Of a stretch of 64,000 nt of DNA, positions 45 to 61,716 are shown piece by piece. Position numbers and translations under genes: made by a program. The notes beneath the pieces are model-generated. The model did no database searches. It saw nothing but the letters and a program-made list of their open reading frames with translations, and was not told the DNA's origin. The DNA lies in the NCBI GenBank assembly GCA_000092065.1, contig CP000583.1; one strand, 5' to 3'. This stretch comes from Ostreococcus lucimarinus. Taxonomy: Eukaryota. The number at the start of each line of letters is the position of its first letter. The first letter of the stretch is position 1.

Positions 45-3000
45 CTAGGTCACGTCTACATCAGAGTCTCTACGAGCTTTTTTCCATGCCGGAGACGGAT
101 CGACGGCGTTCAATAATTCTGAATGCGCCGGTTGCTGTGACGAACGACGCTGCGACATTCGCGGAAGTTCGTTGACGTAAACGTCCAAATCTTCTTCGAT
201 TTCATCTTCTTCACGGTTGTCGTCTTCGACATAAGGATTCGGAATACCTTTTTCCATGCACTCCACCGCTTGTTTGATGACGGCGAGAACTTCAGCGTTA
301 TTCTTTTTGATCGCAGTTCTCTCGTTCGCTTTATCGACGCCGCTTTCGATGAACTTTTTCATATCATCAGCAGTGCGCGGTCTTACTTTTTGGAGTAACT
401 GCAAGAGATTCGGAGGGAATGCGACATCGAGGCTGACTGGTTTGCCCGTCTTCAGCTCTCGCGCATGAGCCATGCGCTTACGCCAAGAGGTCAAAGCTGC
501 GAACACAGCATTGCGCATGTCTTGCTCCTTCTGGTTGTCCTCGAGCGCATTCGGATTGAGCATGTCAGCCAGGAAGCCATCGACATCGGATTGCGTACCG
601 GGTTGCGTACTAGGTTGCGTGCCAATAATGACAGTTGTAGTGACCGGAACTTTCTTTCCAGCAGATGCTCGCCTCTTGGTAAACGCCATAGAAAATCTTT
701 CTCTACCCTGTTGAATCGGTTCGCAGCGGTGTCGTTCGTAGTGAATGGTTGTCACAGTCGTCGCAAATGGTCCAGCTCCTTCACTACGAACGGTTTTCTC
801 GCTCAAAAAGCCACGCAAAACCATCGCGCGCGCGATTCTTTCCGATTCGGACTTGTCCAAACCTTTGCCTGACCCATAACCAGGTAAGCGGTTGTATTGC
901 TTCTGAGTCACCGTCTTTGCGCTTGAACCTCTGAATACGTCTACGAGGAGTCCGATACCAATACCCTCTGGAGTAGATTTCACGATGCTGATAATTCCTC
1001 TAGCGTACTCGGTGATGTCTGTTTGCTCGAATTTGACCCCATTGGCTATAGCGTGACACGAGTCACACATGCCTCGACAATGCGAGCGCTCGAACCGTTC
1101 ATCGAAGTGAGCCATCAATTGTGTCCGCCGACAATCCGCCAAATTTTCACAATAAGAGACCATAGTGTTGAGGGACTCTAGATTGTTTTGAAGGACCGCC
1201 GGTTGGGCACGCTCTCTGCGAGCACTATCGATCAACATACTCCTCGCTTTCGACGCGTCGCCCCAAGAGTAAAAGAGAATACACAAACCATGATCACCGT
1301 CGCGTCCAGCACGACCGCTCTCTTGATGATATGCCTCCAGAGATTTAGGCATGCTATGATGAAACACGAATCTAACGTTTGGTTTGTTGATACCCATCCC
1401 AAACGCCACCGTAGCGCAAATAATGTTCACTTCATCTCTTTGCCACATTTCCTGATGCTTCTTCCGCACGTTGTCTGCCAAGCCTGCGTGATAAGGCACG
1501 GCCCGTAGTCGTTTAGGGAATCTCTCGCGGTCTCCCACTGATCGATCAATCTTGTTTAATTCCGTTGCAATTTTTTCGCAGTCGGCTTGACTGAAGCAAT
1601 AAATGATACCGCATTGCACACGATTGTTTCTCATCAGTTTGCGACTCACGATAAGATTTTTTATCTCGTTGACCATTTGCTTACCTTTAAGTTTCGGATG
1701 AACTTCGTACGTCAAATTGGTTCGATTGAATGTATCGAAAAATCGCAAGCACTTTGGTAAGTTTAACTGGCGAACTATGTCATCTTGAACTCTTCGAGTT
1801 GCCGTCGCCGTCAGGCACATGATTGGCGTCGTCGGGAATAAATGTTTCAAACCTCTCAGTTCGGTGTAATCCTTTCTAAAGTCATGTCCCCAAGCACTGA
1901 TACAGTGCGCTTCGTCCAACACAAAGCGATTCAGCATACCTCTCTCATATAATCTCTGCAGAGCAGTCTTTAATTTGCCACTTCGCACTACTTTTTCTGG
2001 AGTGACATATAAGAGTCGAAGCTCGGGCGTAGGTGAGCGAAGATCGTCGTATATCGTATTATCACTGTCCTTTGCAGCAGAAAGCACTGTTGCTGGAATA
2101 CCCATTTCACTCAAGTGGTGCAGCTGATCCTGTATCAATGAAATAAGCGGTGAGATGACCACCGTGATACCGGGCTTGACGACAGCCGGGAGCTGGTAGC
2201 ACAACGATTTGCCTCCGCCAGTGGGCATCAACACGAGGCAGTCTCTCGCGGCCATGGTGGCATTCACCGCGAGCAGTTGTAAACTTCGAAACGACTTCGC
2301 GTTAAACGTGTTGCGAAGAGTCTGTTCGCAGAGTTTGCTCCACTGGAAGTTGGTGTGACCCCAGTCTTTGGCGTCTCCGCCTTTCATCTGACAGTCATTC
2401 ACCACAACATTCGACCCGACATTTACGGCACCAATCCCGTTCATGGGAATCACGACGTCATCACCGATCGGTAAATCGTCGTTCCATCCTGGGAAATCGT
2501 TGGGATCGTCACCCGCGGGAGGTGCCGTCCACGCGCTCGTCGACGGCGCTCCGTACTGGGGCGGCACTTGATGCCGCGGCGCCTCAATCATTCTCGACCC
2601 GTCTACCGGCATCGAATGACTCATCATCGGCGCTGAAGGATGAAAGCTATTTCGACTTCCATCTTCACACACTCGAATGATCGTTTCCGCTTCCATTCTT
2701 TGATAAACCAGAACCTTTCTGTCACTATTCTTCAACGCCACGTCGTCGTCTTCCAATTGGAAAACAATGTTTGCTAACACAGGTCGCAGTTGCTCGATGT
2801 GTGATGCGCGGTGCGAACAAGCATGTAAAGGCACCCCATGCTCGCATCTCCAATCCGCTCCTGAACCATTCAACGGCGGCGCCTGGCATGAGATAGACGG
2901 ACCCGATGGCGGCGCGCGAGACTGTTCCAAAACGCGCGCGCGTGGCGCGCTCATCGGTGCCGGCGTCATCGCTTGCCGCGCGGGAATCGGCGCCATCTGC

Positions 3001-3512
3001 AAGCTCACCGTTACGCTAGAATTCACCGCGTTCAACGAACCCGAGCGTTTGTGCATCATCACCTGTTCCACGTCAATATCCGCCATGATATCGTCGTCGT
3101 CGTCGTCAAACATCAACTCGTCCGCCGTCGAGTTTGCCACGGAAATCGGCGCCGATTTCTCCCCCACATTCCCCTTCCCCGTCTCAACGTTCGCTCGAGC
3201 TGGAACAAGTACACGTTCTCGAATCGTCTCGTTCCCGGATTTCCCATCTCGAACGCTCGATCGACGCGTTCCCGGATCTGGAAGGTTCAAACGCGCGTAC
3301 GGCGTTTTCAAAAAATCAATCACGCTCTGCAATCCTCGATCGTTCAGCGTCGCCGGCGCGAACGCCCCGTCGTCCACGCGCATCCACACTCGCGCATCGC
3401 TCGACGTCGTGTCGTTCAGAGGCGCGGCGAGCGGGTTTTGTCCATCGAGCGAGTACGCGAATCCCTCGCGCGTCGTCGACGCCTCGGCCGTTCGACCGGC
3501 GTCGACGCGCAT
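45..3512 (-). CDS. ATP-dependent DNA helicase, RecQ family (BLM/Sgs1-like), with about 400 aa N-terminal extension containing an acidic D-run
   Basis: ORF 1155 aa. Walker A 'LMPTGGGKSLCYQLPAV', DEAH box 'VLDEAHCISAWGHDFR', helicase-C 'YHAGL', 'ATVAFGMGINKPNVRFVFHH'. RecQ-C zinc cluster 'CRR..C..CDSC'. C-terminal HRDC-like tail. Confidence 0.9.
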   Translation of the reverse strand: MRVDAGRTAEASTTREGFAYSLDGQNPLAAPLNDTTSSDARVWMRVDDGAFAPATLNDRGLQSVIDFLKTPYARLNLPDPGTRRSSVRDGKSGNETIRERVLVPARANVETGKGNVGEKSAPISVANSTADELMFDDDDDDIMADIDVEQVMMHKRSGSLNAVNSSVTVSLQMAPIPARQAMTPAPMSAPRARVLEQSRAPPSGPSISCQAPPLNGSGADWRCEHGVPLHACSHRASHIEQLRPVLANIVFQLEDDDVALKNSDRKVLVYQRMEAETIIRVCEDGSRNSFHPSAPMMSHSMPVDGSRMIEAPRHQVPPQYGAPSTSAWTAPPAGDDPNDFPGWNDDLPIGDDVVIPMNGIGAVNVGSNVVVNDCQMKGGDAKDWGHTNFQWSKLCEQTLRNTFNAKSFRSLQLLAVNATMAARDCLVLMPTGGGKSLCYQLPAVVKPGITVVISPLISLIQDQLHHLSEMGIPATVLSAAKDSDNTIYDDLRSPTPELRLLYVTPEKVVRSGKLKTALQRLYERGMLNRFVLDEAHCISAWGHDFRKDYTELRGLKHLFPTTPIMCLTATATRRVQDDIVRQLNLPKCLRFFDTFNRTNLTYEVHPKLKGKQMVNEIKNLIVSRKLMRNNRVQCGIIYCFSQADCEKIATELNKIDRSVGDRERFPKRLRAVPYHAGLADNVRKKHQEMWQRDEVNIICATVAFGMGINKPNVRFVFHHSMPKSLEAYHQESGRAGRDGDHGLCILFYSWGDASKARSMLIDSARRERAQPAVLQNNLESLNTMVSYCENLADCRRTQLMAHFDERFERSHCRGMCDSCHAIANGVKFEQTDITEYARGIISIVKSTPEGIGIGLLVDVFRGSSAKTVTQKQYNRLPGYGSGKGLDKSESERIARAMVLRGFLSEKTVRSEGAGPFATTVTTIHYERHRCEPIQQGRERFSMAFTKRRASAGKKVPVTTTVIIGTQPSTQPGTQSDVDGFLADMLNPNALEDNQKEQDMRNAVFAALTSWRKRMAHARELKTGKPVSLDVAFPPNLLQLLQKVRPRTADDMKKFIESGVDKANERTAIKKNNAEVLAVIKQAVECMEKGIPNPYVEDDNREEDEIEEDLDVYVNELPRMSQRRSSQQPAHSELLNAVDPSPAWKKARRDSDVDVT

Positions 3513-25653: not shown

Positions 25654-28602
25654 CTACCTCAAATACTGCGCAACACGATGTGCACGCTCGAATATAGGAT
25701 CCAAGAATGCATTGCTTGAGCGGTGGATTTCGCTTATGAAGTGTTGCATGGCGGCCTCATCATCGAGCTCTAACGCGAACTTTGACTCAAATCTAAGCAA
25801 AGCTTTTTCGTAGTCTTGATTTATGTTGATGTCAGGGATATTCGCGTCTGCCATCAGGCTGAAAAGATTCAACAGCAACACCACCGACTCACTCTTTCGT
25901 AAGATGTTGTATGCTTCGCAACAGTAAGTCTTAAACTCACTGAAGTACTCGCCCATCGCTTCGACCATCTCTTTGCAGAGCTTCATCGATGGGGGAGAAA
26001 TCTTTGGATCACGTCCCATGATGAATCCAAAGTCAATGTGAAACAACCTTCCATCTGAGGCCAGCATCAAGTTGTCCAAGTGTCGGTCCCCCACGCCCAG
26101 CAGATACGTAATCACCGAGTACCCAGCACAACTCTTGACGAAGTTCATCATCGATGTCATCGTACATCCGTTCGGGCCGTGCGGGTCGGGATTGTGTAAA
26201 GCTATGTATGTCGTCAGCTTCTCGTGTTCCTTGAGGATGTCAGCAAGCCCTTGGGACTTGACAAACTCAATGAGTCCTGTATCATTTCCAGTGGCGAGTA
26301 CACGGTACGAAGTCAATTTCAAATCAAGATTTTCTCGCTTCAAAAGCTTGTCCATCAATGAAATCATCTGCACGCAGAGTTGATCTTGCCGTAAGTCATC
26401 GCCCTTCTTGAAGATCATCGTTGCGCTGTCCCCGGTGCTGTTGGCGAAATATAATTAATAAAAAAAATAAAGTCGAATGTGAAATAATTACTCACAGCGT
26501 CTGGAACGCGAGCTTCAATGGGCTCAGCGCAGATTTGAAAACATTACTTTCACTGAAACATGAATGATTTAACCACTCGTCGAAAACGTGCAGAAATTGA
26601 GATTTACCTCGCAAGTATGCCAGTCGTCAATACCTGAGCGAAAATTAAATAATTAGACCGTGAGAAGACAAACGAAAGCTCGCAATTCTGAACGTACCGT
26701 CGGATTCAACGGGTTGGGAATGGCCTGAGGGAACGATGTTAACACAGCACCAAGCGTATTGTCACTAGAGAGAATGGCCTGCGAAGTTAATCGCGTCAGC
26801 TCCCGAATATTTAATTAATTCAGAAATAATAATTGAACGTACCCTCAGACGCTCGACTTTACGCGCCCCACGAAGCGTGTTAACTTCTTGAGTAATGATC
26901 TACCCACGTAACGTCAGAAACGAATTAATTCGACGTAATTGATCGAAAACCGTACCGTAATCTTTTCCATCAGTTCCCGCTGGAATTTCAGTGTCTCCCA
27001 AACACTACGTCCTCGTGTATCCTTCGCCCTACTAGCTCGCTCGAACATGCGGAATGCGCTCATGCTACGTTCCGCTGCTAATCCCTCCCATCCAACTTGC
27101 AAGTACCTGCGACAAAACGCGTCAGAACCAATCTTGATACATTTAATTTAATTTAATTAATTCCACGAGGTGGAGTTCTTTGCACTAATACGTACCAGTA
27201 CAAATAGTTCCCGACGACTTCGTTCGCGACTGCGCGTTCGACTAAAAATTTCGCGAGTTCGTTGTCGTCGGCTGTTTCGTAGCGTAACGCCTGTTTGCAT
27301 TTGCGAAGAAAATTTGTTAGTGAACCCATTTAATTTAACACATCGAGCACAGAGCGCACTGAGACATAGAGTATCGACAACATGTGCGCAAACGATCCAT
27401 ACCTGAACTAACTGCAGCAAATATAGCAATAGATCTTCATTCTCAGCTTGTCTCAGGATGGAAACCGCGTAACGACGTACTTCGCTGTTCGAGAAGGTTG
27501 GTGTCAGAAGTTCCAACGCTGCGGCTGGGCCGATGGGCGCCCACTCGCGCATCAGTTGCACTGAGGCCTGCGTTTCAGCCGGATCTGACCAGTCGACACA
27601 CTTAAGGAACTTTGTTAACGCCCTTGGATCGTGACTTATGGCGAATCTAAACTTCCACAGCAAATTTTGCGATTCCATGTCCAGCGGTCGCGTGGGTGGG
27701 AGTTGGATAATTGCCGACAGCCTGCGCTTCTCGGCTCCATCTGGCTTCAACTCCATATCAATAACGCCACGACCGACACTACGCGAAAGCTTTTGATGCT
27801 TACGCTCAGCCGGGTTTTCTAACATCAAATTAACCTCGTCGTCGACGAGCCAAGTCAAGCGCTGCCAACTGTGAATCTCCAGCGGCTCCACGTCTTCTCG
27901 ACGCTCGCGAAAAATCACTGGGCGCACGTACACGGGCAGCTCTACCAAGAGTTGGAAGAAGTCATCAGTCGCCTGGGCTATACGCAACTGCATACTTCGA
28001 GCATCTCGTATGCGAGAAAACACCAAATTATCCAACCAGTTCACCGAAGGCAAAGTTCCTTGCTCATACTGCACCAAGAAACTCTCGAGCTGCTGGAGCT
28101 CCGCCTGTTGCTCCATGAACTTGGCGCCAAGTTGATCGTACTCTTTCTTCGACTCACGAGCCGTCGAGAGCGCTAAACAACGCAAACCTTGTAATAATCG
28201 ATCATCGTCCCCAAAAATATCCACTCGAGAGTATCCCAACACGGTGTTCGGCAACTTTCTCGCCGAAAGTATTCTAAATTCGAGAGACGTCTCACGAGGA
28301 AGATCTCTCACTTTGATGGGAAATCTCAGCTTTTCCTTCCACTCAGCCATTCCATCGGCGTGAACAACCATCGTTGTAGAAACTTCATTCGTAAGAGGTT
28401 CCTCGTTCGACAGCAAACGAGCGCTCACAAGAATTTCACTCTCCACGGTTCCCACTCGCGAGCGAGGCAGTTTGCCGTACAGCGCCTTGACGTGCACGTT
28501 GAAGTCTAACGAGACATCTCTGCTTGAAAAGACCTTCAAGTTCTCATCTTGAACCACGTCGGTCATCTCGAACGACCTTTTCGCCCCCCAATCGGTTCGC
28601 AC
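25654..28602 (-). CDS. VPS34: phosphatidylinositol 3-kinase catalytic subunit type 3 (VPS34), 8 exons with approximate coordinates 28602..27403, 27290..27196, 27106..26956, 26899..26843, 26778..26698, 26633..26608, 26552..26496, 26437..25654
   Basis: Exon 1 = C2 + helical domain ('VRRYAVSILRQAENEDLLLYLLQLVQ'). Middle exons = 'ALRYETADDNELAKFLVERAVANEVVGNYLYW', 'VFKSALSPLKLAFQT'. Last exon = kinase core 'IFKKGDDLRQDQLCVQMISLMDKLLKRENLDLKLTSYRVLAT', 'LGVGDRHLDNLML...GRLFHIDFGFIMGRDPK'. Seven AT-rich 55-112-nt introns with GTACG/GTATG/GTGAG/GTAAA donors, CAG/TAG acceptors and CTGAC/CTAAC branch points. Confidence 0.9.
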
Positions 28603-28922
28603 GTGCGCTAATCCACCGACTCGACCGATAACCGAATGTCGTCGGCTTTTGAATCTTCACTCGCGTCCGTCAATCCTGCGTTGCCCGCCGAGTCCGCGTG
28701 GCACACGCTTGAATAACCCACAACGCACTGGTTGCCGTCTCGCTCGCCCGCGCGCGCTCGTGCGGTTGCGCGCAGTCTGCGGTGCGCCAACGCGAACGCG
28801 ACGGGAGGAAAAAAAGCTCAGCGCGTGTGGCGCCAAAATTCCCCAGACGAGAACAGGTCGAGCAGACGCCGCCACACGAGTACGTTCAGACGGCATTCGA
28901 CGGCGTCCGCGACGCTGAGACG

Positions 28923-29972
28923 ATGCTGGCGTGTAACGCATGCTGGTGTGACCTAGACTCTGGATCGGCGTACATCGCGGCGTGCGATCACGTCTTCTGT
29001 GCGTGCGAAAGACGCGTGTGCTCTCGACCTCGACCGTTTAGGTTGCGGTTTTATTCGAATACTTCCCTCGCTCGAAGCGCGCGCATGGCGCGAGTTCGTA
29101 GAATCTGACGACAGTTGATCGACACAGGTGAAAAGGATGTGCACCTCGGCCTCGAGCAGCGACAGTGCGCGGTGTGTGCGACGAAGATGGAAGAGCGAAC
29201 TATTCGAGTCTCGGAAGTTCAACCCGACCTCGGCGAGCTTCAACGCAAGCTGACTGGCCTCAACCCGAACGACATGCTCACCGCCGTTGCGTACGGATTA
29301 AAATTTTGGGACGATCAACTCGAGCTTCGATACAGAACTGAGCTTGAAAAGTCGTTCACGAGCGCGCAAAGAAGCGCTGAGATGTACAAGAGGAAACTTC
29401 AGGTGTGTCGTCGCCTCTTGAAACGCCACATGCCATGCAAACTAACCTGATCGCACCTCCAGGACGTGCACAACGCTTATAAGAGAGCCAAGACGAAACA
29501 AGATGAACTTGCCGCTCAGTTAAAGGAACGAGAGAATGATATTGAAGAGTTACAGCATCGCTACGAAGAGAAGAGCAGAGAGAAGCGTCGTTTGGAAGAT
29601 TCAGCTGGAAGAGGCAGACCGAGCCTGGGACCACAGTTTCAGGCACGCACGGCACCTATGATGCCAGAGACTGCGGGTCGAATCGATACTCGAGGTCGTA
29701 CCGAACCTGATGGTTGGCTGCAACAACAACGGGTCTCGTCTAGCGAACTCCGCAGTCATCGTAGCTCCGAGCAACTTCACAGGAATTTACCGCAGCGTCG
29801 CACCAGTCTCACGCGCAGTTTCGACAGCGGATTGACACCTCCATCAAATTCACGCGACTCACACGAGCGCACATTTCGAGCTCTTTCTCCGTACACGCGT
29901 CAGGCAGTCGAACCACCTTCTCGGCCCGGACGTGATTCCGTCGGACTGTTCTCGAAACGACGCATATTCTGA
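28923..29972 (+). CDS. HEI10: RING-type E3 ligase HEI10/CCNB1IP1 (meiotic class-I crossover factor), 3 exons: 28923..29015, 29127..29402, 29463..29972
   Basis: Exon 1 'MLACNACWCDLDSGSAYIAACDHVFCACE' versus human 'MLLCNYRKCRIKLSGYAWVTACSHIFCDQH'. Exon 2 'QCAVCATKMEERTIRVSEV...AVAYGLKFWDDQLELRYRTE' (second CxxC of the RING, then coiled coil). Exon 3 coiled coil and Ser-rich tail ending 'LFSKRRIF' (human '...FKVKRI'). Introns 111 and 60 nt with GTGTG donors. Confidence 0.75.
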
Positions 29973-30129
29973 CGCCGATTGACAATTGAATGAACGAGTG
30001 AAACGAGTGATGACGACATGCATAATAACGATTATCTTTTATTCTCTACTAGATGGCTAAAAGAGATATGTGGTAACACGCTACGTAGGAATGTAAAGGT
30101 TTGAATGAAATGACTCGACCGTTGCCTTT

Positions 30130-30843
30130 TTATCGCCCGATGATACTCTGCGCCGCCACGTTGAGGCCCGAAAGTAGGGCGCCACCAGCACCATACACCG
30201 CTACAGCGCGAGGACCACTCATACTTTTGTAAAGTGCCCCTGCACCTCCGCCTGCGAATATGGAGCACAGGGAATCGTGCCGATTTTCCAAGTACGCCAT
30301 CGAGGCGCTTTCGAGAGCGGCGTAATACAAGCCGAGGCAACCCAAGGTGTTCCCCATCGATCGTCCTCTTTGACTTACGGCGTTGAGCATTCTATTCAAT
30401 CGCAACTTGGACGTGTCCAAAGCCGGTTCCGGTGCGGCTTTCATGCTCCCGTATAACCCCCACCCTCCGCCGGCGATGCTTCCACCGAGGTATCCAACCC
30501 CGGTCAGGTACGTCAGGTTTTCACTCCAGCTTCGCGTCTTCACCGTGCGCTCTTCATCGAATAAGAACTCAGGTGTATCCGATAACGCATAAATCGCCTT
30601 ATTCATCGACGGATCGAAAGGCCCACCCAATCCGCTATACGGATTGTACGCCCCGCTCGCCCCGCTCGGCAGCGCCAGGCTCTCCGCCGGCGCCCCGAAG
30701 TTTGGCTGCTCTATGTTCTCGTTCAGCGCGCTCGTCGTCACCGCGCCTCCGTTGGGTTCATCCAACGTCTTTGCCCCGCTCGATGACGCTTCGTTCTTGT
30801 TCTTTTCACCCCTTCGCACGCTCAACAAGTCTCGAAGACCCAT
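30130..30843 (-). CDS. TIM23: mitochondrial inner-membrane translocase subunit TIM23 (Tim17/22/23 family)
   Basis: 'NLTYLTGVGYLGGSIAGGGWGLY', 'GNTLGCLGLYYAALES', Gly-zipper TM segments. Soluble N-terminal domain. Confidence 0.75.
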   Translation of the reverse strand: MGLRDLLSVRRGEKNKNEASSSGAKTLDEPNGGAVTTSALNENIEQPNFGAPAESLALPSGASGAYNPYSGLGGPFDPSMNKAIYALSDTPEFLFDEERTVKTRSWSENLTYLTGVGYLGGSIAGGGWGLYGSMKAAPEPALDTSKLRLNRMLNAVSQRGRSMGNTLGCLGLYYAALESASMAYLENRHDSLCSIFAGGGAGALYKSMSGPRAVAVYGAGGALLSGLNVAAQSIIGR

Positions 30844-55103: not shown

Positions 55104-58100
55104 TCATTTCCAAGTGTTTGGAAATTGTTGCGTTCGCGATGATGATATTCTCGTGAATCGGTGCTGCGTTAAGTCTCTGTTCGAATCGAAACAATCAAGC
55201 GTCGAGTTTCTTCGCCCACGCTCGGGAGGCGCGGGCATTCGGTAAGACTCGAGCATTTGATTGAATTCCTCAAGTGACGGTTCAGGTTGCTGCCGATGCT
55301 TCTCCAGAATCATGTTTGCGCTCGTCGAGGGTCCGTCGCTCGTCCGGGTCGGTTGCCAGAGTCGACCACCGCCGACAGCGCCAACATTGACAGGGGGCGC
55401 TCTTCGTGGTGACGCCGCTGGCGGTGATCGTAAGAGTGATCGCGGCGCCGACGTGGGAGACGTCTTGAAGTCCACGATTGGAGACGGCGTATCGATATTG
55501 CGCCGATGCAAAGATTGGTAATAATGCGGAGTCGCGGTGTTTGTCGGCGAATCTAAAGACAAAGATTCGAGCTCCCATTCGTCGAGTCGTGGTCGCTTCG
55601 AAATGGGCGAGTAAAACTCTGTGATTGGACGTTCCGTGAAGACTTGCCTTCGTTCTTGCGCAGCTCCGCCGCGGGGCGAATACGGCGGTGGTACATCCTT
55701 CGCCGGCTCTTCGGCACCGAAGACATCGAGTGGGCATCCAAGGTATCCATCGCGTTGCAAGTACGCCTTAGTATTCGAAGACAGATTACCAATGCGTTGG
55801 AGTTCATCGCAAACGAATTCATCCGCCAATAGAGCGCATGCGGAGATTGGATTGAGCAAAGGAAACATATCACACAACTCCATTTCTTCAATCGTTCGGC
55901 TCTCTGGCATTGGCGCAGAAAATTCTGAGAAACGACCATCTTGTGGCTGCAGAATCTCATGTAGCATCGACGCGGTTTCATCTTCGAGACTGTACCTGAG
56001 ATCGATGGAAAAATGCATGTGCGCGGCGTCTGAATGGATTCTTCGATCAAGCGTTTGCGCAATGTTTAAAAAGTCCAAATCACCCTCAAAGACCATCGTT
56101 CCTGACACAAACGAGTGCGCCATAGCAACCATCAAATCTTCCACCAACGAAAAAAGTTCAATTTGTGTCGGTAACCCTTCAACAAAATATTCTGGCACGA
56201 TCAATATCACTGCGTGAACTTGCTTGCCGACGGTGAAGCATGCGTCAACGTCGATCCCAAACTCTCGCAAAATCACGTCGCACCCGTCGTCGAGTAAGTT
56301 TCGCTCAACTTGACCAAATAGTTGCTCTCGTACCTTGATAATCTGTCTAGCGACGTTGAGCACGACGACGTGCCTCGGAACGCCATCGAATTGTACAGGA
56401 GGCGATACATTGGGATCTTCGTCGCGCACGACGCTTGCAGCATGTTGATTATTCTCCACGTACGGTGAATGACGCAACGCCGATGACGCAGGCTCTGGAT
56501 CTTCACTAGGTATAGAGACACCCCGTTTCATGGCGAGCACTCTCACAAAGCGATTTGCAGCGTGGCGCGAAGAACCAAGCAGATGAAGATCTTGAAGCGC
56601 ATTCGGCGACGGAGCGTAATAAACGCACGTCGAAAATAGCTCCAATGGAAATGCCTCATGAGCAATATGAGCCTCGAGAGCGATTAAAACTTGTACATTG
56701 GCCGTCGCGAGCGTAACCGCGCGAGCGAAATCCTCAACATCGTCTTCGTGTAGATTTTTAAACTCTTGCTTACCATCAAACTGAACTGCTTTTGTACCAA
56801 GCTTACTGATAAATCGCACGATGGAGAGTATACCCATCGCGTCGGGAAAGATAATGAGCATTTTCGATTGAGTCACTATGAGATCTGCGATGTACGCTCT
56901 GATCATTCTCAACTTGGGATGATCGTCAAACTCGCCGCGCTCCACGGCAACGTCGTTGTTTTCGACGAGGCTCTTGATGTCTGATAAATCTTGTTCATCC
57001 TTAGCGTAACTCCGCATCAAAATGTGCGCTTGATGAATTCCATACACATGAATTAAATTCGCCGCACTTTGACAGCACAGCAAGTTCTTCAAATGTCGAT
57101 TGATTGACGACGACTCATTCGCAAAGTGTTTCATTGCGTGCGCGAGCTCCGTAGATTCGCCGACTTGAAATCGGGGAATAGCTCGCTGAATATCCAGAGG
57201 TAAAATTTGCGATATGTAACCATAACGTTCCGCGAGCACTTTGATCACATATGTGTGTTCTGGATCAAGGTCAAGCTCGACGAAATCGATCAAGCACGCA
57301 TCCTTGTGTTTCTCAATCTTCGAAAGAGACAGCGATTCACTCAGCGTCGGTGGCTTTGGAATGGCTTCAGGCGCTGACTTTGGCGGTTCTTTCGTCGTTC
57401 GTGGTTCATCGTTCTTATCCATCATGTCGTCCCAAGTCCAATCGAGATCATCATTATCCATCTCGGCTTCGCGAAATAAAGTTGCCGCCGCGGTGTGCTC
57501 TTCTTCTTGAAATCGCGCCAACGTATCGAGGGCGTTTGGGATAGCAACTTTCCATTCGGATAACGCGGGCGCGCGGTCTTTTACTGCTTGCACACTCGCA
57601 ATCACGTCTCGCATTGCGCGATCCGTACGAACATTCGCATCTTCTTCTTCTTCTTCATCGATCTTCGGTACAATCATTGGTTTGGTGACGAATCGGTCGT
57701 CGACGTTTAGAAGCTTCTTTGTCATTTGCGCTTTGGCTTTGGACGAGAAATCATTCGACACCGCGAGGGTGTGCTCTTCCACAGGCGTCGTTAAAGTCTT
57801 CAACTTTGAGTCCAGAGCAATATCCATCGAATCTGGATCCACGTTCTCCATGAACCTTGGCGCGGTGTCTTCACAAATCAACGGAGCGATCTTCGTCGGC
57901 ACGGCTTGGAAAGGGTCTTTCGTCGACGGCTCGGGGATCCTTCCTTGAAACAGGAGATTCTTTAAGTACTCCTTGCATGAACTATCAATCTTTATCTCAT
58001 TTTCCCACGGCAGCACTTTGATCTTTTTCGCCATCGAGAGCAAGAACGTGATCGGAGACGCGAGAAGAGAAGGCTCGTCCATCGCAAACGAAGTCTCGAG

Positions 58101-58766
58101 TGGGCGCGGAAACAAACTCATGAAATCCTTCAACTTACCAACCTTCGTCGTCGACTCAAACTCTTTCGAACCTTCGCTCTCTCGCTCAACGTCGTATCTC
58201 TTCTGCAAGTCATTCTCAACGCAATCCAGCGCCTCCAGGGCGTCTTCGTTCAATCGAAACAAACAGCTCTCCGAATTTGTCGAGAAACTCGCCTCGCGAA
58301 TCGCTCTTCGCAGCGCTCTTCGCGTCTCGTCTTCATCGACGATCACGGGCGTCTCCATCCTCTCCATCCACCGCGAATCCATCGCTACTACCAATGACTT
58401 ATCGATGCCACCGCGCTTCTTCCCATGATCGACCGATATCTTCACCGGACGCGAAGCCACCGCGCCGAACGCCATCGCTCTCTCGTCTCTCGTCTCGCGA
58501 CCCGTCTCCACCCAATCCATCGTCTCCACGCACTTCTCCACCGGCACGGCGGCGATGATGTCCATCGCCGTCAGCGACGCGCACCGCACTTTCGTCCTCC
58601 CCCCCCCCGTGGCGACGTCATCGAGCGTCACCGACCCACCGCTCGTCTCCGACGTCGCCTCGTTCTCGTCCTCCCCCGCCGTCGTCGCGTCGCCTTCGAT
58701 CGCCCTCGCCTTCGCCTCCCACTTCCCACCCCCGTCCTCGCTCGGTTTCGCCCCGATGTGCGTCAT
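55104..58766 (-). CDS. large uncharacterised protein (about 1220 aa) with acidic Gly/Thr-rich N-terminus; possible degenerate helicase-C-like segment
   Basis: Continuous ORF with no Walker A/B. 'KMLIIFPDAMGILSIVRFISKLGTKAVQFDGK' is reminiscent of the SF2 helicase-C motif IV-V context. Track ORF's first 100 codons are microsatellite read-through; M102 (58766) or M87 (58811) is a likelier start. Confidence 0.45.
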   Translation of the reverse strand: MTHIGAKPSEDGGGKWEAKARAIEGDATTAGEDENEATSETSGGSVTLDDVATGGGRTKVRCASLTAMDIIAAVPVEKCVETMDWVETGRETRDERAMAFGAVASRPVKISVDHGKKRGGIDKSLVVAMDSRWMERMETPVIVDEDETRRALRRAIREASFSTNSESCLFRLNEDALEALDCVENDLQKRYDVERESEGSKEFESTTKVGKLKDFMSLFPRPLETSFAMDEPSLLASPITFLLSMAKKIKVLPWENEIKIDSSCKEYLKNLLFQGRIPEPSTKDPFQAVPTKIAPLICEDTAPRFMENVDPDSMDIALDSKLKTLTTPVEEHTLAVSNDFSSKAKAQMTKKLLNVDDRFVTKPMIVPKIDEEEEEDANVRTDRAMRDVIASVQAVKDRAPALSEWKVAIPNALDTLARFQEEEHTAAATLFREAEMDNDDLDWTWDDMMDKNDEPRTTKEPPKSAPEAIPKPPTLSESLSLSKIEKHKDACLIDFVELDLDPEHTYVIKVLAERYGYISQILPLDIQRAIPRFQVGESTELAHAMKHFANESSSINRHLKNLLCCQSAANLIHVYGIHQAHILMRSYAKDEQDLSDIKSLVENNDVAVERGEFDDHPKLRMIRAYIADLIVTQSKMLIIFPDAMGILSIVRFISKLGTKAVQFDGKQEFKNLHEDDVEDFARAVTLATANVQVLIALEAHIAHEAFPLELFSTCVYYAPSPNALQDLHLLGSSRHAANRFVRVLAMKRGVSIPSEDPEPASSALRHSPYVENNQHAASVVRDEDPNVSPPVQFDGVPRHVVVLNVARQIIKVREQLFGQVERNLLDDGCDVILREFGIDVDACFTVGKQVHAVILIVPEYFVEGLPTQIELFSLVEDLMVAMAHSFVSGTMVFEGDLDFLNIAQTLDRRIHSDAAHMHFSIDLRYSLEDETASMLHEILQPQDGRFSEFSAPMPESRTIEEMELCDMFPLLNPISACALLADEFVCDELQRIGNLSSNTKAYLQRDGYLGCPLDVFGAEEPAKDVPPPYSPRGGAAQERRQVFTERPITEFYSPISKRPRLDEWELESLSLDSPTNTATPHYYQSLHRRNIDTPSPIVDFKTSPTSAPRSLLRSPPAASPRRAPPVNVGAVGGGRLWQPTRTSDGPSTSANMILEKHRQQPEPSLEEFNQMLESYRMPAPPERGRRNSTLDCFDSNRDLTQHRFTRISSSRTQQFPNTWK

Positions 58767-58889
58767 CGCGTCTCGTTTCAAATCATCCCTTCGCGTCGAC
58801 GCGTACCGCATCCTCGTCCGTCGCGCCGTCGTCGCGGTGTGGCCGTCCAGCCGTCGCCCGTCCGTCCGTCTCGTCCCGTCTCGGGACGC

Positions 58890-59062
58890 GAATCGCCGGA
58901 TCGGCGAATCGCCGGATCGCGCGATCGGCGGATCGGCGGATCGGCGATCGCGCGATCGATCGTCCGTCGATCGCGCGATCGCGTCGATCGATCGATCGTC
59001 GATCGACGTCCGTCGACGGACGTCGATCGTCGATCGTCCCGCCCGGCGCGTCGATCGTCCCG
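58890..59062. repeat. GATCG/GGATCG-based microsatellite cluster in a divergent promoter region
   Basis: 'gaatcgccggatcggcgaatcgccggatcgcgcgatcggcggatcggcggatcggcgatcgcgcgatcgatcg...'. Confidence 0.9.
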
Positions 59063-59070
59063 CCCGCACA

Positions 59071-61716
59071 ATGACGTCGTCCGCGTCGGCGATGTTTGCG
59101 CACGCGACGACGGGCGCGCGCGGCGCGTCGACGGTGCGCGCGCGCGCGAGGACGTCGGTGACGACGACGGGCGCGCGCGCGACGATCGCGCGCGGCGCCG
59201 GGGCGCGGCGAAGCGCGCGCGCGACGGCCGAGGACGGGCGCCGCGATGGAGGGTTTCGTCTCGGGACGGCGACGACGGACGGATGGGCGCGAGCGCGCGC
59301 GATGCGCGGCGAGGGACGAGAGGACAGAGCGGTGATGACGCGCGCGGTGGCGGACGCGGAGGCGGCGCGGGAGGACGACGATAAAAAGTCGCGCGCGAAG
59401 CTCGTGCGAGGGGCGGACGGGAAGTTTTACCGCGAGGGCTCGGAGGGCGGCGGTCGCGGCGGCCGCGGCGGTCGCGGCGGTCGCGGCGGTGGACGCGGTG
59501 GTGGACGCGAAGGTGGACGAGGTGGATTCGGGCGCGGTGCGCGCGGTGGTGCAGGCGGCCGCGGCGATGGGGGTCAACGAAACTTTAGAAACGCGGCCAA
59601 GCCGAGCGGCGGCGGTCGCGCGGGTCGCGGCGGCCGCGGTGGACGACAAGACTTTCGATTCCAAGACGGTCGCAAACCGGGACGCGGCGGTAGACCAAAG
59701 ATGAATATGAGTGGTGCGAGTGGTAGCGATCAAGTGAAACAGCGACGAGGAAGCAAAGCGGCAAAGAGCGCGCAGCGCAAAAAGGCGCTCGAGGAAAACA
59801 GAGCCGTGGCTGTGGAGATTCTCGAAGTTCCCACGGATGGCATGGCGATCGAAGATCTCACCGAACTTCTCGCCACGACGCAAGCGCAAATTATCAAAAC
59901 GCTTTTCATGAAGGGTATCGCGGTTCAAATGGGCCAGTTGCTCGATAAGGAAGCTGTGATTGCCGTGGCTGAGGATATGGAAGTGGAATGGATAGACGAG
60001 GCTGAACAGGGCGTCGCGACGGCGGCAAAGAAGGTGACGCAGTTCTTGAGCGAAGACGACTTCGACTACTTGGTACCGCGAGCACCCGTAGTTACCATCA
60101 TGGGTCACGTCGATCACGGTAAAACATCGCTGTTGGATTACATTCACAAGTCCAAGGTTGCCGCGGGCGAGTCCGGCGGCATCACGCAAGGCATCGGCGC
60201 GTACCAAGTCAGCACCATGGTTGGTGATGAAGAGAAGGATATTACCTTCCTCGACACTCCGGGTCACGAAGCGTTCAGTGCGATGCGTGCTCGTGGTGCG
60301 CGAGTGACGGATATTGCCATAATTATCGTCGCGGCCGACGACGGCGTTCGACCGCAAACGGAAGAGGCTGTATCTCACGCCCGAGCCGCCGACGTTCCGA
60401 TCATCGTCGCCGTCAATAAAATTGACAAAGAAGGCGCGAACGTCGACCGTGTGCGTGATGAACTATCGCGCATCGGTATCATCAGCGAAGAGTGGGGCGG
60501 GGACGTTCCGTTCCTGCCCATCAGCGCCAAGTCTGGCGAAGGTATCGACGAGTTGCTCGAAACTATTTCTCTCACCGCCGAGCTCGCCGAGCTCGTCGCG
60601 AATCCCGATCGCGAAGCTCAAGGTACGGTCATCGAGGCATTCCTCGACAAACAACGTGGTCCGATGGCGACTGTTCTCGTCCAAGCCGGCACTTTGCGCA
60701 TCGGCGATGCGATTCAAATTGGTGGCGCGTATGGCAAAGTGCGCGCAATGGACGACGCAGATGGCACCAAAGTCGAAGAGGCTGGACCATCTATGCCTAT
60801 TCAAATCATGGGCCTCAACGGCGTTCCAGCCGCGGGTGAAGAATTTACCGTCTACGCGTCCGATACCGCGGCTCGTGACAAGGCTGAGCAAGTCCAAAAT
60901 GAGATTCGCAACAACCGCTTGATTGAGGGCAACGTTGTTTCGCTGAGCAACTTGCCGGGCGATGAGGATGGATTACAAAAGATCAATCTCATCGTCAAAA
61001 CAGACGTTAGTGGTTCTTGCGAAGCAGTCAAGGCTGCTCTCAGTGCGTTGCCTCAAGACCGCGTCCAGCTTCGTTTCCTCATGGCCTCTGCAGGCGAAGT
61101 GAGCGAGAGCGACGTCGATTTGGCTTCTGCCTCCGAAGGGATCATCTTGGCTTTCAATACGCCTTGCAGCGACCGAATCGGCGAGATTGCGAAAAAGAGG
61201 AAGGTTGAAGTACGTACTTACGACGTTATCTACGATCTGGTCGATGAAGTTCGTGCGGCAATGGAAGGCATGTTGAGTTCGATCAAGGAAGAAATACCGT
61301 TTGGCAAGGCGACGTGTAAGGCTGTCTTTGGCGGCGGTAAGGCGAAGGTTGCCGGTTGCGAGGTGACTGACGGTTACTTCCAGTCCAAAAAGTACTTGAG
61401 AGTCACTAGAAGGGGCAAAGAAGTGTTCTTCGGTAAGGTCGGCTCACTTCGTCGCGTCAAGGATATCGTCAAGAAGGTTGAGGCTGGCTTAGAATGCGGT
61501 ATCGGCGCCGATCCCGAGTGGGACGGCTTCAAAGCGGGCGACGAACTGGAGTGCTTGGACTTGGTCGATAAGATTCAAACACTCGAAACTGCGAGTGAAA
61601 TTTTGGCAGAACGTGTTGAAGAATACCAAGCTGGTGAGGCCGAGCGTGAAGCCGCGCGAGAAAAGGCCAAGGAAGGTTACCAGCGACAACAACGACGGGC
61701 CGCTCCGTCAAAGTAG
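59071..61716 (+). CDS. infB: translation initiation factor IF-2, bacterial/organellar type, with presequence and RGG-repeat N-terminal region
   Basis: 'VVTIMGHVDHGKTSLLDYI', 'DTPGHEAFSAMRARGA', 'NKIDK', domains II-IV ('ATVLVQAGTLRIGD', C-terminal beta-barrel 'VFGGGKAKVAGCEVTDG'). Confidence 0.9.
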   Translation: MTSSASAMFAHATTGARGASTVRARARTSVTTTGARATIARGAGARRSARATAEDGRRDGGFRLGTATTDGWARARAMRGEGREDRAVMTRAVADAEAAREDDDKKSRAKLVRGADGKFYREGSEGGGRGGRGGRGGRGGGRGGGREGGRGGFGRGARGGAGGRGDGGQRNFRNAAKPSGGGRAGRGGRGGRQDFRFQDGRKPGRGGRPKMNMSGASGSDQVKQRRGSKAAKSAQRKKALEENRAVAVEILEVPTDGMAIEDLTELLATTQAQIIKTLFMKGIAVQMGQLLDKEAVIAVAEDMEVEWIDEAEQGVATAAKKVTQFLSEDDFDYLVPRAPVVTIMGHVDHGKTSLLDYIHKSKVAAGESGGITQGIGAYQVSTMVGDEEKDITFLDTPGHEAFSAMRARGARVTDIAIIIVAADDGVRPQTEEAVSHARAADVPIIVAVNKIDKEGANVDRVRDELSRIGIISEEWGGDVPFLPISAKSGEGIDELLETISLTAELAELVANPDREAQGTVIEAFLDKQRGPMATVLVQAGTLRIGDAIQIGGAYGKVRAMDDADGTKVEEAGPSMPIQIMGLNGVPAAGEEFTVYASDTAARDKAEQVQNEIRNNRLIEGNVVSLSNLPGDEDGLQKINLIVKTDVSGSCEAVKAALSALPQDRVQLRFLMASAGEVSESDVDLASASEGIILAFNTPCSDRIGEIAKKRKVEVRTYDVIYDLVDEVRAAMEGMLSSIKEEIPFGKATCKAVFGGGKAKVAGCEVTDGYFQSKKYLRVTRRGKEVFFGKVGSLRRVKDIVKKVEAGLECGIGADPEWDGFKAGDELECLDLVDKIQTLETASEILAERVEEYQAGEAEREAAREKAKEGYQRQQRRAAPSK

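Follow-up and report, generated by a model that had tools for sequence, protein, structure and literature searches.

A three-exon HEI10/CCNB1IP1 gene in Ostreococcus lucimarinus and a corrected model of its 286 aa product

The closest described relatives of the gene reported here are Arabidopsis thaliana HEI10 (At1g53490, F4HRI2), which belongs to the ZMM proteins and is needed for class I crossovers, and human CCNB1IP1/HEI10 (PDB 9ges), the assembly of which in cells depends on the length of its coiled coil (PMC13174674). The RNF212/Zip3/ZHP-3 proteins form a sister family with a pro-crossover role and the same order of RING, coiled coil and variable Ser-rich tail, and their chemistry is reported to be that of SUMO ligases and not of ubiquitin ligases (PMC3405992). 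The 64-kb window (the whole stretch of DNA that was analysed) is from the O. lucimarinus CCE9901 genome, and several of its ORFs match proteins of this strain exactly. Within it we find a locus that is most probably a single-copy HEI10/CCNB1IP1 gene of three exons encoding 286 aa, and for which we infer a function in meiotic crossover formation from the characterised family members; we give this reading a probability of roughly 0.85.

Family assignment and the RNF212 alternative

The locus had initially been annotated as a HEI10/CCNB1IP1 ortholog, and this identity was borne out by phmmer, BLASTP, profile comparisons and a published survey. The best phmmer match among 177,635 PDB sequences was human CCNB1IP1 (9ges, E 1.3e-7, query residues 1–162), and BLASTP against Arabidopsis HEI10 gave an E-value of 2e-20 over residues 2–163, at an identity of only ~23%, with this locus being the sole match to Arabidopsis HEI10 in the window. 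A profile built with default hmmbuild settings from the O. tauri model P0001 and the duplicated translations of the window exons had 286 states, corresponding to the spliced protein, and retrieved 135 family members at E ≤1e-3 from 1.84 billion proteins. The named matches were CCNB1IP1 (Balamuthia, Mastigamoeba and Desmodus (P0274)). Across the searches the best named matches were CCNB1IP1/HEI10 and not generic RING proteins, and the JGI/IMG name for the exon 2 ORF (P0130) is 'E3 ubiquitin-protein ligase CCNP1IP1'. A profile search of the PDB with the family alignment A8 returned 9ges at E 2e-64, which is not an independent result because A8 includes a mammalian CCNB1IP1.

Since RNF212/Zip3/ZHP-3 proteins share the layout of an N-terminal RING, coiled coil and variable tail, the gene might belong to this SUMO-ligase-type family of crossover RING proteins instead of HEI10. 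Pfam zf-RING_5 is matched by both families, and hhalign did give a weak match to mammalian RNF212 (59% probability, E 9e-5), but this was confined to 50 columns of the RING, whereas the match to vertebrate CCNB1IP1 (97.1% probability, E 6e-11) spanned 151 columns and took in the linker and coiled coil as well. Profile scores were 25.5 bits for CCNB1IP1 against 4.4 bits for RNF212, and no RNF212 protein id was present among the 135 profile matches, which did include mammalian CCNB1IP1. The similarity is thus greater to the characterised HEI10 members than to RNF212/Zip3; nothing beyond the RING resembles RNF212/Zip3/ZHP-3, a family with conserved residues of its own, and the O. lucimarinus protein carries the HEI10-specific GLxP...FW..Q motif. 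Membership of the RNF212 family is therefore highly improbable.

RING finger, coiled coil and tail of O. lucimarinus HEI10

A distinctive HEI10 RING start had been noted in exon 1, and the quoted motif is indeed present: MLACNACWCDLDSGSAYIAACDHVFC matches the human MLLCNYRKCRIKLSGYAWVTACSHIFC, except that one residue fewer precedes 'SG', and the two proteins have a near-identical start (ML-x-CN...SG-x-A...AC-x-H-x-FC), while the C-N-A-C-W start is shared with Arabidopsis HEI10. The RING ligands, C4-x2-C7...C21-x-H23-x2-C26-x2-D29...C39-x2-C42, follow the N-terminal family pattern C-N-x(2-4)-C...C-x-H-x-F-C-x2-[C/H/D]...C-x2-C, with the first ligand pair spaced as C-x2-C and not as C-x4-C as in the human protein. 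Zinc ligand 6 is Asp (D29), as in Arabidopsis HEI10 (C-x2-D) and land plants, whereas it is His in human HEI10 and other mammals and in the Ostreococcus lineage L005, and Cys in the more distant genomic contig L008 and in many protists; D29 lies within the C/H/D set used by the family at this position. All ten residues that are invariant in an alignment of 34 family members were found (C4, N5, C7, C21, H23, C26, C39, C42, G69 and Q89), and P72 and F85 are nearly invariant in the same alignment. Pfam has no HEI10-specific model, and its zf-RING_5 model matched residues 4–43 with an E-value of 2.8e-6 and a score of 27.6 bits, 0.3 below the cut-off of 27.9.

Following the RING are the family's helix-containing linker and the helix-cap motif (G-L-x-P...F-W-x-x-Q), of which the G-(L/I)-x-P part is also found in Arabidopsis HEI10. 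The Ostreococcus cap is nearer to that of animals and amoebae, because it has FW and not the FY of Arabidopsis. Residues P72, L76, L83, F85 and W86 correspond to P82, L86, L93, F95 and W96, named as contacts at the head-to-head tetramer interface of the human protein (PMC13174674), and together with human L77 this makes six of the nine human tetramer contacts identical; the other three are changed (Y72 to E62, V76 to K66 and Y98 to D88).

Exon 2 had been described as supplying the second CxxC and a coiled coil, of which the CxxC (C39-x2-C42) is present as stated, and the coiled coil does start there but continues into exon 3. This coiled coil of about 90 residues (~92, compared to ~115 in human HEI10) aligns to that of human CCNB1IP1 and ends ~10–20 residues before that of Arabidopsis HEI10, with which it shares VH-x-AY-(K/Q)-(R/K) and ELQ-x-(K/R)-(F/Y)-x-EKSR-x-KR-(K/R)-L. 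The latter family motif (ELQxxYxEKSRxKRxL, or ELQ-x-K-(Y/F)-x-EKSRQKRKL) is present and aligned as ELQHRYEEKSREKRRLE, whereas the '...LYDxL' that follows EKSRxKRKL in most other members is replaced here by Gly/Pro-rich sequence. In the AF2 prediction of the O. tauri ortholog, made from the read-through model P0001 (mean pLDDT 55.6, pTM 0.26), the equivalent of the coiled coil was helical with a pLDDT of 76–94, and the RING region and the whole of the tail had a pLDDT <50.

The tail (residues 166–286) is variable, predicted to be disordered, and consists of 17% Arg, 14% Ser and 10% Pro, with S, T, P, R, G and Q making up 63%; it ends in ...LFSKRRIF, in agreement with the Ser-rich tail and basic C-terminus initially proposed for exon 3. 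Arabidopsis HEI10 likewise has a disordered tail (total length 304 aa versus 286 aa in Ostreococcus), and the Arg/Ser/Pro-rich Ostreococcus tail cannot be aligned with that of human HEI10. The basic C-terminal tip is common to the Ostreococcus (SKRRIF) and human (FKVKRI) proteins, in contrast to ...RPQLFTL in Arabidopsis, and no substitution of its residues S281, K282, R283, R284 or F286 is seen in any Ostreococcus-lineage sequence. We speculate that the invariant Ser/Thr-Pro sites of the tail, T242-P and S259-P, are candidate CDK sites.

Gene model, database entries and conservation

The HEI10 gene runs on the + strand from the ATG at 28923 to the TGA ending at 29972, with both bounds being exact in our hand-built and script-checked model, and the spliced coding sequence of 861 nt is interrupted by two GT-AG introns (Table 1). 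No in-frame ATG was found upstream of 28923, and the in-frame translation 5′ of this position is not conserved between lineages. The three-exon structure put forward in the initial annotation was recovered with its intron positions and phases in four Ostreococcus lineages (this genome, L001, L002 and L005); intron 1 measures 129, 113 and 145 nt in L001, L002 and L005, and intron 2 measures 60, 84 and 64 nt. Splicing of intron 1 is required, because reading through it meets a stop codon in O. lucimarinus and shifts the frame in L002 and L005. The junction across intron 2 is identical in the RefSeq entry XP_001416621.1.

Table 1. Positions of the HEI10 gene, its protein domains and flanking features in the window
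Feature	Position	Strand	Description
PI3K/Vps34-like ORF	27157-28602	-	From the ORF list and the Pfam labels of syntenic genes in L001/L002/L005
Upstream intergenic region	28603-28922	.	Between the HEI10 ATG and the divergent PI3K/Vps34-like gene; presumed shared promoter and 5′ UTR
Exon 1	28923-28998	+	Met1 to base 1 of the Cys26 codon; first half of the RING (C4, N5, C7, C21, H23, F25, C26); donor T/GTGCGT, phase 1, splitting the Cys26 codon
RING finger	28932-29177	+	Residues 4-42, split by intron 1
Intron 1	28999-29127	+	129 nt, GTGCGT...CACAG, phase 1; acceptor CACAG/GT; putative branch point CTGAC at 29105-29109
Exon 2	29128-29402	+	Rest of Cys26 and residues 27-117; zinc ligand 6 (D29), C39-x2-C42, linker, GLxP...FW..Q helix-cap motif, start of coiled coil; donor CAG/GTGTGT, phase 0
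Helix cap and coiled coil	29265-29600	+	Residues 72-163, split by intron 2
Intron 2	29403-29462	+	60 nt, GTGTGT...CTCCAG, phase 0; acceptor CTCCAG/GAC; putative branch point CTAAC at 29442-29446
Exon 3	29463-29972	+	Residues 118-286 and TGA; remaining coiled coil (to ~residue 163, with ELQHRYEEKSREKRRLE), tail and tip
Basic C-terminal tip LFSKRRIF	29946-29969	+	End of exon 3
3′ UTR and convergent intergenic spacer	29973-30129	.	Ends at the stop of the Tim23/Tim17-family gene; putative role
Tim23/Tim17-family gene	30130-30843	-	Convergent with HEI10

The deposited annotation differs from this model, as XP_001416621.1 ("predicted protein") has 241 aa, starts at Met46 and equals residues 46–286 of the spliced product, and it lacks the RING because exon 1 was missed. 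If this entry were correct, the product would be RING-less and exon 1 would lie outside the mRNA; the pattern of conservation makes this very unlikely. In two diverged lineages 21–22 of the 26 residues of exon 1 are the same in the face of 19–21 nucleotide changes (22/26 residues identical to L005, yet 19 of 78 nucleotides differing), so that it is conserved at the protein level, while sequence upstream of the ATG is not. The donor, the acceptor and the split Cys codon are also retained in all four lineages, all family members have their N-terminus only a few residues from C-N-x-C, and six of the ten residues invariant in the family are encoded by exon 1, without which half of the RING would be lost. 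The genomic comparison supports the three-exon model with a coding exon 1, and the gene is judged to be real and intact.

The O. tauri ortholog (OUS43796.1, UPI0000E4ADE7) is 72% identical after removal of the intron-encoded residues and has the same exon structure. Its deposited models (315/316 aa) read through both introns, which are in frame and free of stop codons in that species, and thereby contain 19–20 plus 9 spurious residues; the spliced O. lucimarinus protein scored 34.4 bits against human CCNB1IP1, compared to 14.9 bits for the O. tauri read-through model P0001. The O. tauri ortholog is named 'putative bZIP protein', and the listing of 27 Pfam families for the window protein at E ≤10 includes no bZIP. 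Only the corrected gene model is new here, as the identity of the gene is already published, and its practical value is curatorial, with the RefSeq entry being RING-less and the O. tauri entries mis-modelled and mis-named. A phylogeny, a structure prediction or a cloning project based on XP_001416621.1 or the O. tauri entries would start from a defective protein. The corrected sequence of 286 aa provides a HEI10 of compact size that can be compared biochemically with the human core, which was solved recently.

Comparison with L005 gave a pN of 0.10 and a pS of 0.74 for the RING and coiled coil, and nucleotide identity of 0.66 in intron 1 versus 0.76–0.80 in the flanking exons. Across the lineages pS was 0.71–0.79, at which synonymous sites are saturated, with a pN of 0.10–0.14 in the RING and coiled coil, and these values indicate that HEI10 is under strong purifying selection in Ostreococcus. 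As sex is unobserved in the genus and some ZMM partners are undetected, the gene could be seen as a decaying relic or pseudogene of a lost sexual cycle, but this is exceedingly improbable with an intact frame and canonical splice sites in at least four lineages at such pS and pN values, and with invariant tail motifs and C-terminal tip. The flanking PI3K and Tim23 genes are syntenic in all relatives. In L008 intron 2 is missing together with 21 codons; reading this sequence (P0003) as a spliced transcript was rejected, since the 3′ end of intron 1 remains, which identifies it as genomic.

Meiotic context and the wider window

The Ostreococcus protein may share the K63 ubiquitin-chain activity and the oligomeric state described for human HEI10. 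By analogy with Arabidopsis HEI10 and with structural and biochemical results on human HEI10 (PMC13174674), two parallel coiled-coil dimers would meet head to head at a bundle of P72, L76, L83 and W86 and so form a rod-like tetramer, with the four RINGs probably grouped at its centre. Such tetramers may self-assemble via the coiled coil and the basic C-terminal tip, and the assembled HEI10 would recruit an E2 and build ubiquitin chains. In meiotic prophase, HEI10 would then gather at a subset of recombination intermediates and commit these to becoming ZMM-dependent (class I) crossovers; it is by this analogy that we infer a meiotic role in Ostreococcus.

A survey of plant meiotic genes from 2023, using proteome-wide PSI-BLAST/HMMER searches, lists XP_001416621.1 as O. 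lucimarinus HEI10 (PMC9957857, Supplementary file 2); no full text pairing HEI10 or CCNB1IP1 with Ostreococcus was found in the literature, with the assignment present only in this supplementary table. The same survey lists MER3, MSH5, ZIP4, SHOC1, MLH1/3, DMC1, HOP2, MND1, REC8 and SPO11-2 for O. lucimarinus, while MSH4, ZYP1, PTD and HEIP1 were undetected, and the pathway context is thus incomplete; HEIP1, the partner of Arabidopsis HEI10, is undetected in chlorophytes. Direct evidence of sex in Ostreococcus is absent, with three indirect lines of evidence cited (PMC8557840), and publications on the meiotic toolkits of the genus and on indirect signs of sex have appeared since 2006. The initial annotation had argued from an intact, spliced HEI10 to a functional meiotic sexual cycle in a microalga where sex may never have been seen, which is a reasonable argument for a gene that appears intact and constrained. 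Both this argument and the HEI10 assignment are already published, so that our results agree with the literature and are not new in this respect; they fit the long-held view of a cryptic sexual cycle in Ostreococcus and add little beyond confirmation.

An intact HEI10 would be silent on sex if the protein acted outside meiosis, for example in the control of cyclin B at G2/M, as mammalian CCNB1IP1 was first found as a cyclin-B1-interacting cell-cycle factor (PMC3405992). Such a role would fit with the unobserved sex and the undetected MSH4 and ZYP1, but is unlikely given the other ZMM and meiotic genes listed for O. lucimarinus (PMC9957857). Rare expression is weakly hinted at by the GC3 of HEI10 (0.54, the lowest when compared to 0.60–0.72 for its neighbours), and by finding no transcript-derived full-length HEI10 protein in a collection of 5.8 billion proteins that includes the MMETSP culture transcriptomes. 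In plants and mammals, all that genetics has revealed about the family likewise concerns meiosis. To our knowledge, the same is true of the evidence from fungi.

With a meiotic role as the preferred reading, it is conceivable, but doubtful, that Ostreococcus uses a pared-down form of crossover designation, in which a HEI10 with a short coiled coil works with SHOC1, MER3, MSH5, ZIP4 and MLH1/3. Should MSH4, PTD, HEIP1 and ZYP1, the transverse filament of the synaptonemal complex, prove to be truly absent, HEI10 would be designating the obligate crossover on a set of 21 very small chromosomes that lack such a complex. The HEI10 transcript could be used as a marker when screening for meiosis-inducing conditions in Mamiellales.

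Rfam and tRNA scans of the 64-kb window returned no matches. The GC content of the window is 0.558, compared to 0.60 for the genome, and its conserved synteny makes a location within the low-GC candidate mating-type region less likely. CCE9901 is of candidate mating type MT-, and BCC118000 is an example of an MT+ strain. The window also contains a SHOC1-like ORF, for which support came solely from tblastn with Arabidopsis SHOC1 and which had no Pfam or PDB match, and a gene for a BLM-type RecQ helicase. Together with HEI10, these two genes fall within 59 kb, and the GC3 values of the three are lower than those of any other gene in the window; this may point to co-regulation or to rare expression of all three.

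Structure of the HEI10 gene and its deposited models

The region 28923-29972 opens with ATG and closes with TGA, and no single ORF covering it was present in the ORF list. Three segments in differing frames are linked via two canonical GT-AG introns, giving a spliced CDS of 861 nt that encodes 286 aa. The three-exon gene described in the initial annotation is accurate in coordinates and structure, and its features were recovered in each exon: the HEI10-type RING start in exon 1, where the N-terminus MLACNACWCDLDSGSAYIAACDHVFC aligns with that of human CCNB1IP1 (MLLCNYRKCRIKLSGYAWVTACSHIFC) with one residue fewer ahead of 'SG', the second CxxC in exon 2, and the Ser-rich tail with a basic C-terminus in exon 3 (17% Arg, 14% Ser, 10% Pro).

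Features of the HEI10 gene and of neighbouring genes in the window
Feature	Position or length	Strand	Description
Exon 1	28923-28998	+	encodes the first half of the RING
Intron 1	129 nt	+	GTGCGT...CACAG, phase 1, Cys26 codon split T|GT
Exon 2	29128-29402	+	carries C39-x2-C42
Intron 2	60 nt	+	GTGTGT...CTCCAG
Exon 3	29463-29972	+	encodes tail, last residues LFSKRRIF
SHOC1-like ORF	55104-59069, best match 55824-56375	-	1321 aa as listed; tblastn
IF-2 gene	58555-61716	+	bacterial/organellar-type translation initiation factor, 1053 aa; GTP_EFTU, IF-2, IF2_N domains
RecQ-family helicase ORF	45-3512	-	1155 aa; DEAD, Helicase_C, RecQ_Zn_bind, RQC domains

Several window ORFs exactly match O. lucimarinus CCE9901 proteins belonging to a 982,987-bp record, including XP_001416905.1, XP_001416620.1, XP_001416911.1 and XP_001416912.1. 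The HEI10 gene is itself already in RefSeq as a 241 aa 'predicted protein' (XP_001416621.1 = ABO94914.1 = UniProt A4RU71), which is identical to residues 46-286 of our spliced model and thus shares its intron 2 junction. The start of the RefSeq protein is the internal Met46 in exon 2, so that exon 1, and with it the RING, is omitted. The O. tauri ortholog is deposited as OUS43796.1 (316 aa, 'putative bZIP protein') and UPI0000E4ADE7 (315 aa), models which translate both introns, open and in frame in O. tauri by chance, and so contain the spurious residues ASRRRDGR(S)RDIQRLFINVG and VRIVSNRSH. In the AF2 prediction for the O. tauri read-through protein the coiled-coil helices are confident, with a dip at the insertion encoded by intron 2, and the tail is disordered; no RING is modelled, this domain being split by 19 intron-encoded residues. 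The deposited models of both species are annotation errors, and the remaining value of the analysis lies in a corrected gene model with the RING restored, and in flagging the O. tauri entries as wrongly modelled and wrongly named. Metagenome ORFs corresponding to exons 2 and 3 carry the JGI/IMG name 'E3 ubiquitin-protein ligase CCNP1IP1'.

Assignment to the CCNB1IP1/HEI10 family

Pfam recognised a generic RING only (zf-RING_5, E 2.8e-6), at 27.6 bits, below the cut-off of 27.9. Among all PDB sequences, human CCNB1IP1 (9ges) was the sole significant match (E 1.3e-7, query residues 1-162), and BLASTP against Arabidopsis HEI10, with the sequence taken from PMC9957857, gave 2e-20 over residues 2-163. 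A profile of 286 states, equal to the spliced protein, matched 135 of 1.84 billion proteins at E<=1e-3. The top matches beyond Mamiellophyceae were 280-400-aa proteins aligned at positions 1-165, with named entries in Balamuthia ('cyclin B1 interacting protein 1, E3 ubiquitin protein ligase') and Mastigamoeba ('putative e3 ubiquitin-protein ligase ccnb1ip1'), the remainder being from ferns, lycophytes, charophytes and chlorophytes. The best matches that carry names thus belong to CCNB1IP1/HEI10, not to generic RING proteins.

The sister RING family RNF212 would be the rival assignment. Comparison of identifiers placed the mammalian CCNB1IP1 cluster representative, and no RNF212 protein, within the 135 matches. 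In profile-profile comparisons, four Ostreococcus sequences matched 14 vertebrate CCNB1IP1 sequences with 97.1% probability (E 6e-11) over 151 columns including the linker and coiled coil, versus 59% for 14 mammalian RNF212 sequences over 50 columns covering the RING only; the CCNB1IP1 and RNF212 profiles did not match each other. HMM scores for the window protein were 25.5 bits for CCNB1IP1 and 4.4 bits for RNF212. An alignment of 34 family sequences from plants, green algae, amoebae, fungi and animals showed C4, N5, C7, C21, H23, C26, C39, C42, G69 and Q89 to be invariant and F25, P72 and F85 nearly so, and the window protein carries all of these residues. Zinc-ligand position 6 is always C, H or D: D in the window protein, O. 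tauri and land plants, H in the L005 lineage and mammals, and C (CEKC) in L008, a contig from a more distant relative. The initial observation is confirmed and its HEI10 interpretation supported.

Conservation across lineages and predicted architecture

Ortholog loci were drawn from metagenome and SRA assemblies and comprised L001 (nearly identical to the window), L002-L004 and L005-L007, all of which keep the gene order PI3K-HEI10-Tim23. Both introns have the same positions and phases in 4/4 lineages, with GT-AG ends and a CTRAY-type branch motif throughout, and vary in length (129, 113 and 145 nt for intron 1; 60, 84 and 64 nt for intron 2). If intron 1 is retained, the frame runs into a stop codon in the window genome and is shifted in both L002 and L005, so that splicing is the sole way to join the RING halves. 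Of the 26 residues of exon 1, 21-22 are retained although 19-21 nucleotides have changed; upstream of the ATG there is no in-frame ATG, and the in-frame sequence is not conserved across lineages. As judged from these sequence comparisons, the gene is intact and constrained across lineages with saturated synonymous sites, since the RING and coiled coil show pN 0.10 and pS 0.74 against L005 (dN/dS ~0.03), with dN/dS ~0.19 in the tail.

No full-length transcript-derived protein was found in a collection of 5.8 billion proteins; the L008 protein (P0003) was considered as a spliced-transcript candidate and rejected, its sequence being genomic. This copy (L008 1-817, Tara Oceans metagenome contig, ENA ERZ908152) retains intron 1 (ACTAAC...TTTTAG|GT), but intron 2 and the first 21 codons of exon 3 are missing (...KRKL|KDREND...), which looks like intron loss plus a neighbouring in-frame deletion.

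The human HEI10 core is a 29-nm tetramer in which two parallel coiled-coil dimers are joined head to head through a four-helix bundle centred on L86 and L93, the helix being capped by P82 against W96, the RING docked by F95 and Y98, and the linker residues Y72, V76 and L77 interlocking (PMC13174674, the 2026 preprint behind PDB 9ges). Higher-order assembly, driven by the basic C-terminal tip and the long coiled coil, is required for K63 ubiquitin chain formation, and the tetrameric core is retained in Arabidopsis HEI10 (PMC13174674). Human P82, L86, L93, F95, W96 and L77 are identical to P72, L76, L83, F85, W86 and L67 of the window protein, whereas Y72, V76 and Y98 are replaced by E62, K66 and D88. 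The basic tip is SKRRIF, invariant in Ostreococcus, compared with human FKVKRI, and the coiled coil is shorter (~92 versus ~115 residues), lacking the LYDxL continuation after EKSRxKRxL. Given the shared contact residues and basic tip, the same architecture would be expected: by analogy with human HEI10, the Ostreococcus protein may form a rod-like tetramer with four centrally clustered RINGs, and may act as a ubiquitin ligase dependent on assembly. By homology with Arabidopsis HEI10 genetics (PMC3405992), it would commit recombination intermediates to class I crossovers.

Meiotic gene inventory and linked genes

HEI10 is conserved across all major plant lineages (PMC9957857, Plant Reprod 2023), and Supplementary file 2 of that survey assigns O. 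lucimarinus HEI10 to XP_001416621.1, so that the published assignment rests, in a supplementary table, on the truncated model. The same row holds accessions for ASY1, DMC1, HOP2, MER3, MLH1, MLH3, MND1, MSH5, PCH2, REC8, SHOC1, SPO11-2 and ZIP4, and 'ND' for MSH4, ZYP1, PTD, HEIP1 and SPO11-1. The O. tauri REC8 entry, XP_001415906.1, is the accession also given for O. lucimarinus, probably a copy error. Meiosis genes were reported with the 2006 O. tauri genome, as cited in PMC2488364. Direct evidence of sex is absent in Ostreococcus, and the indirect evidence comprises meiotic genes, recombination in populations and a candidate mating-type locus, with CCE9901 as a candidate MT- strain (PMC8557840). 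No main text treating Ostreococcus together with HEI10 or CCNB1IP1 was found among searchable papers. The argument from HEI10 to a sexual cycle is reasonable and matches the published position (PMC8557840), but it was already known, as both the HEI10 assignment and the indirect evidence for sex have been published.

In tblastn with Arabidopsis SHOC1/ZIP2, its conserved central part matched the window only once (E 2.8e-6, 24% identity over 190 aa), in the minus-strand ORF 55104-59069, which has no Pfam or PDB match. Its 5′ part is overlapped by the antisense IF-2 ORF, and the true start must therefore lie downstream of the listed one. By RefSeq numbering, as the next minus-strand gene after XP_001416916, this ORF should be XP_001416917.1, the accession listed for O. 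lucimarinus SHOC1 (PMC9957857 Supplementary file 2). If so, HEI10 would have a second ZMM gene at a distance of ~25 kb. For some ten ZMM-class genes spread over a genome of ~13 Mb, the probability of such a close ZMM-class neighbour by chance is a few percent.

A RecQ helicase gene also lies 25 kb from HEI10, and near-identical proteins in its 90% cluster carry the JGI name 'bloom syndrome protein'; BLM/Sgs1-type helicases oppose crossover formation. Among 10 genes measured in the window, GC3 is lowest in the HEI10 gene (0.54), the SHOC1-like ORF (0.535 over 55104-58400) and the RecQ gene (0.555), possibly through infrequent expression or weak codon bias; neighbouring housekeeping genes have values of 0.60-0.72. 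A reduced ZMM pathway, possibly operating without a synaptonemal complex and with the HEI10, SHOC1-like and BLM-type helicase genes linked within 59 kb, is a reading that we consider unlikely; it draws on the negative searches of one survey and one weak tblastn match. The GC content of the window is 0.558 (0.47 to 0.65 per 2 kb), with 0.60 for the genome (PMC8557840), and a location inside the non-recombining mating-type region is disfavoured by the synteny shared with other Ostreococcus lineages.
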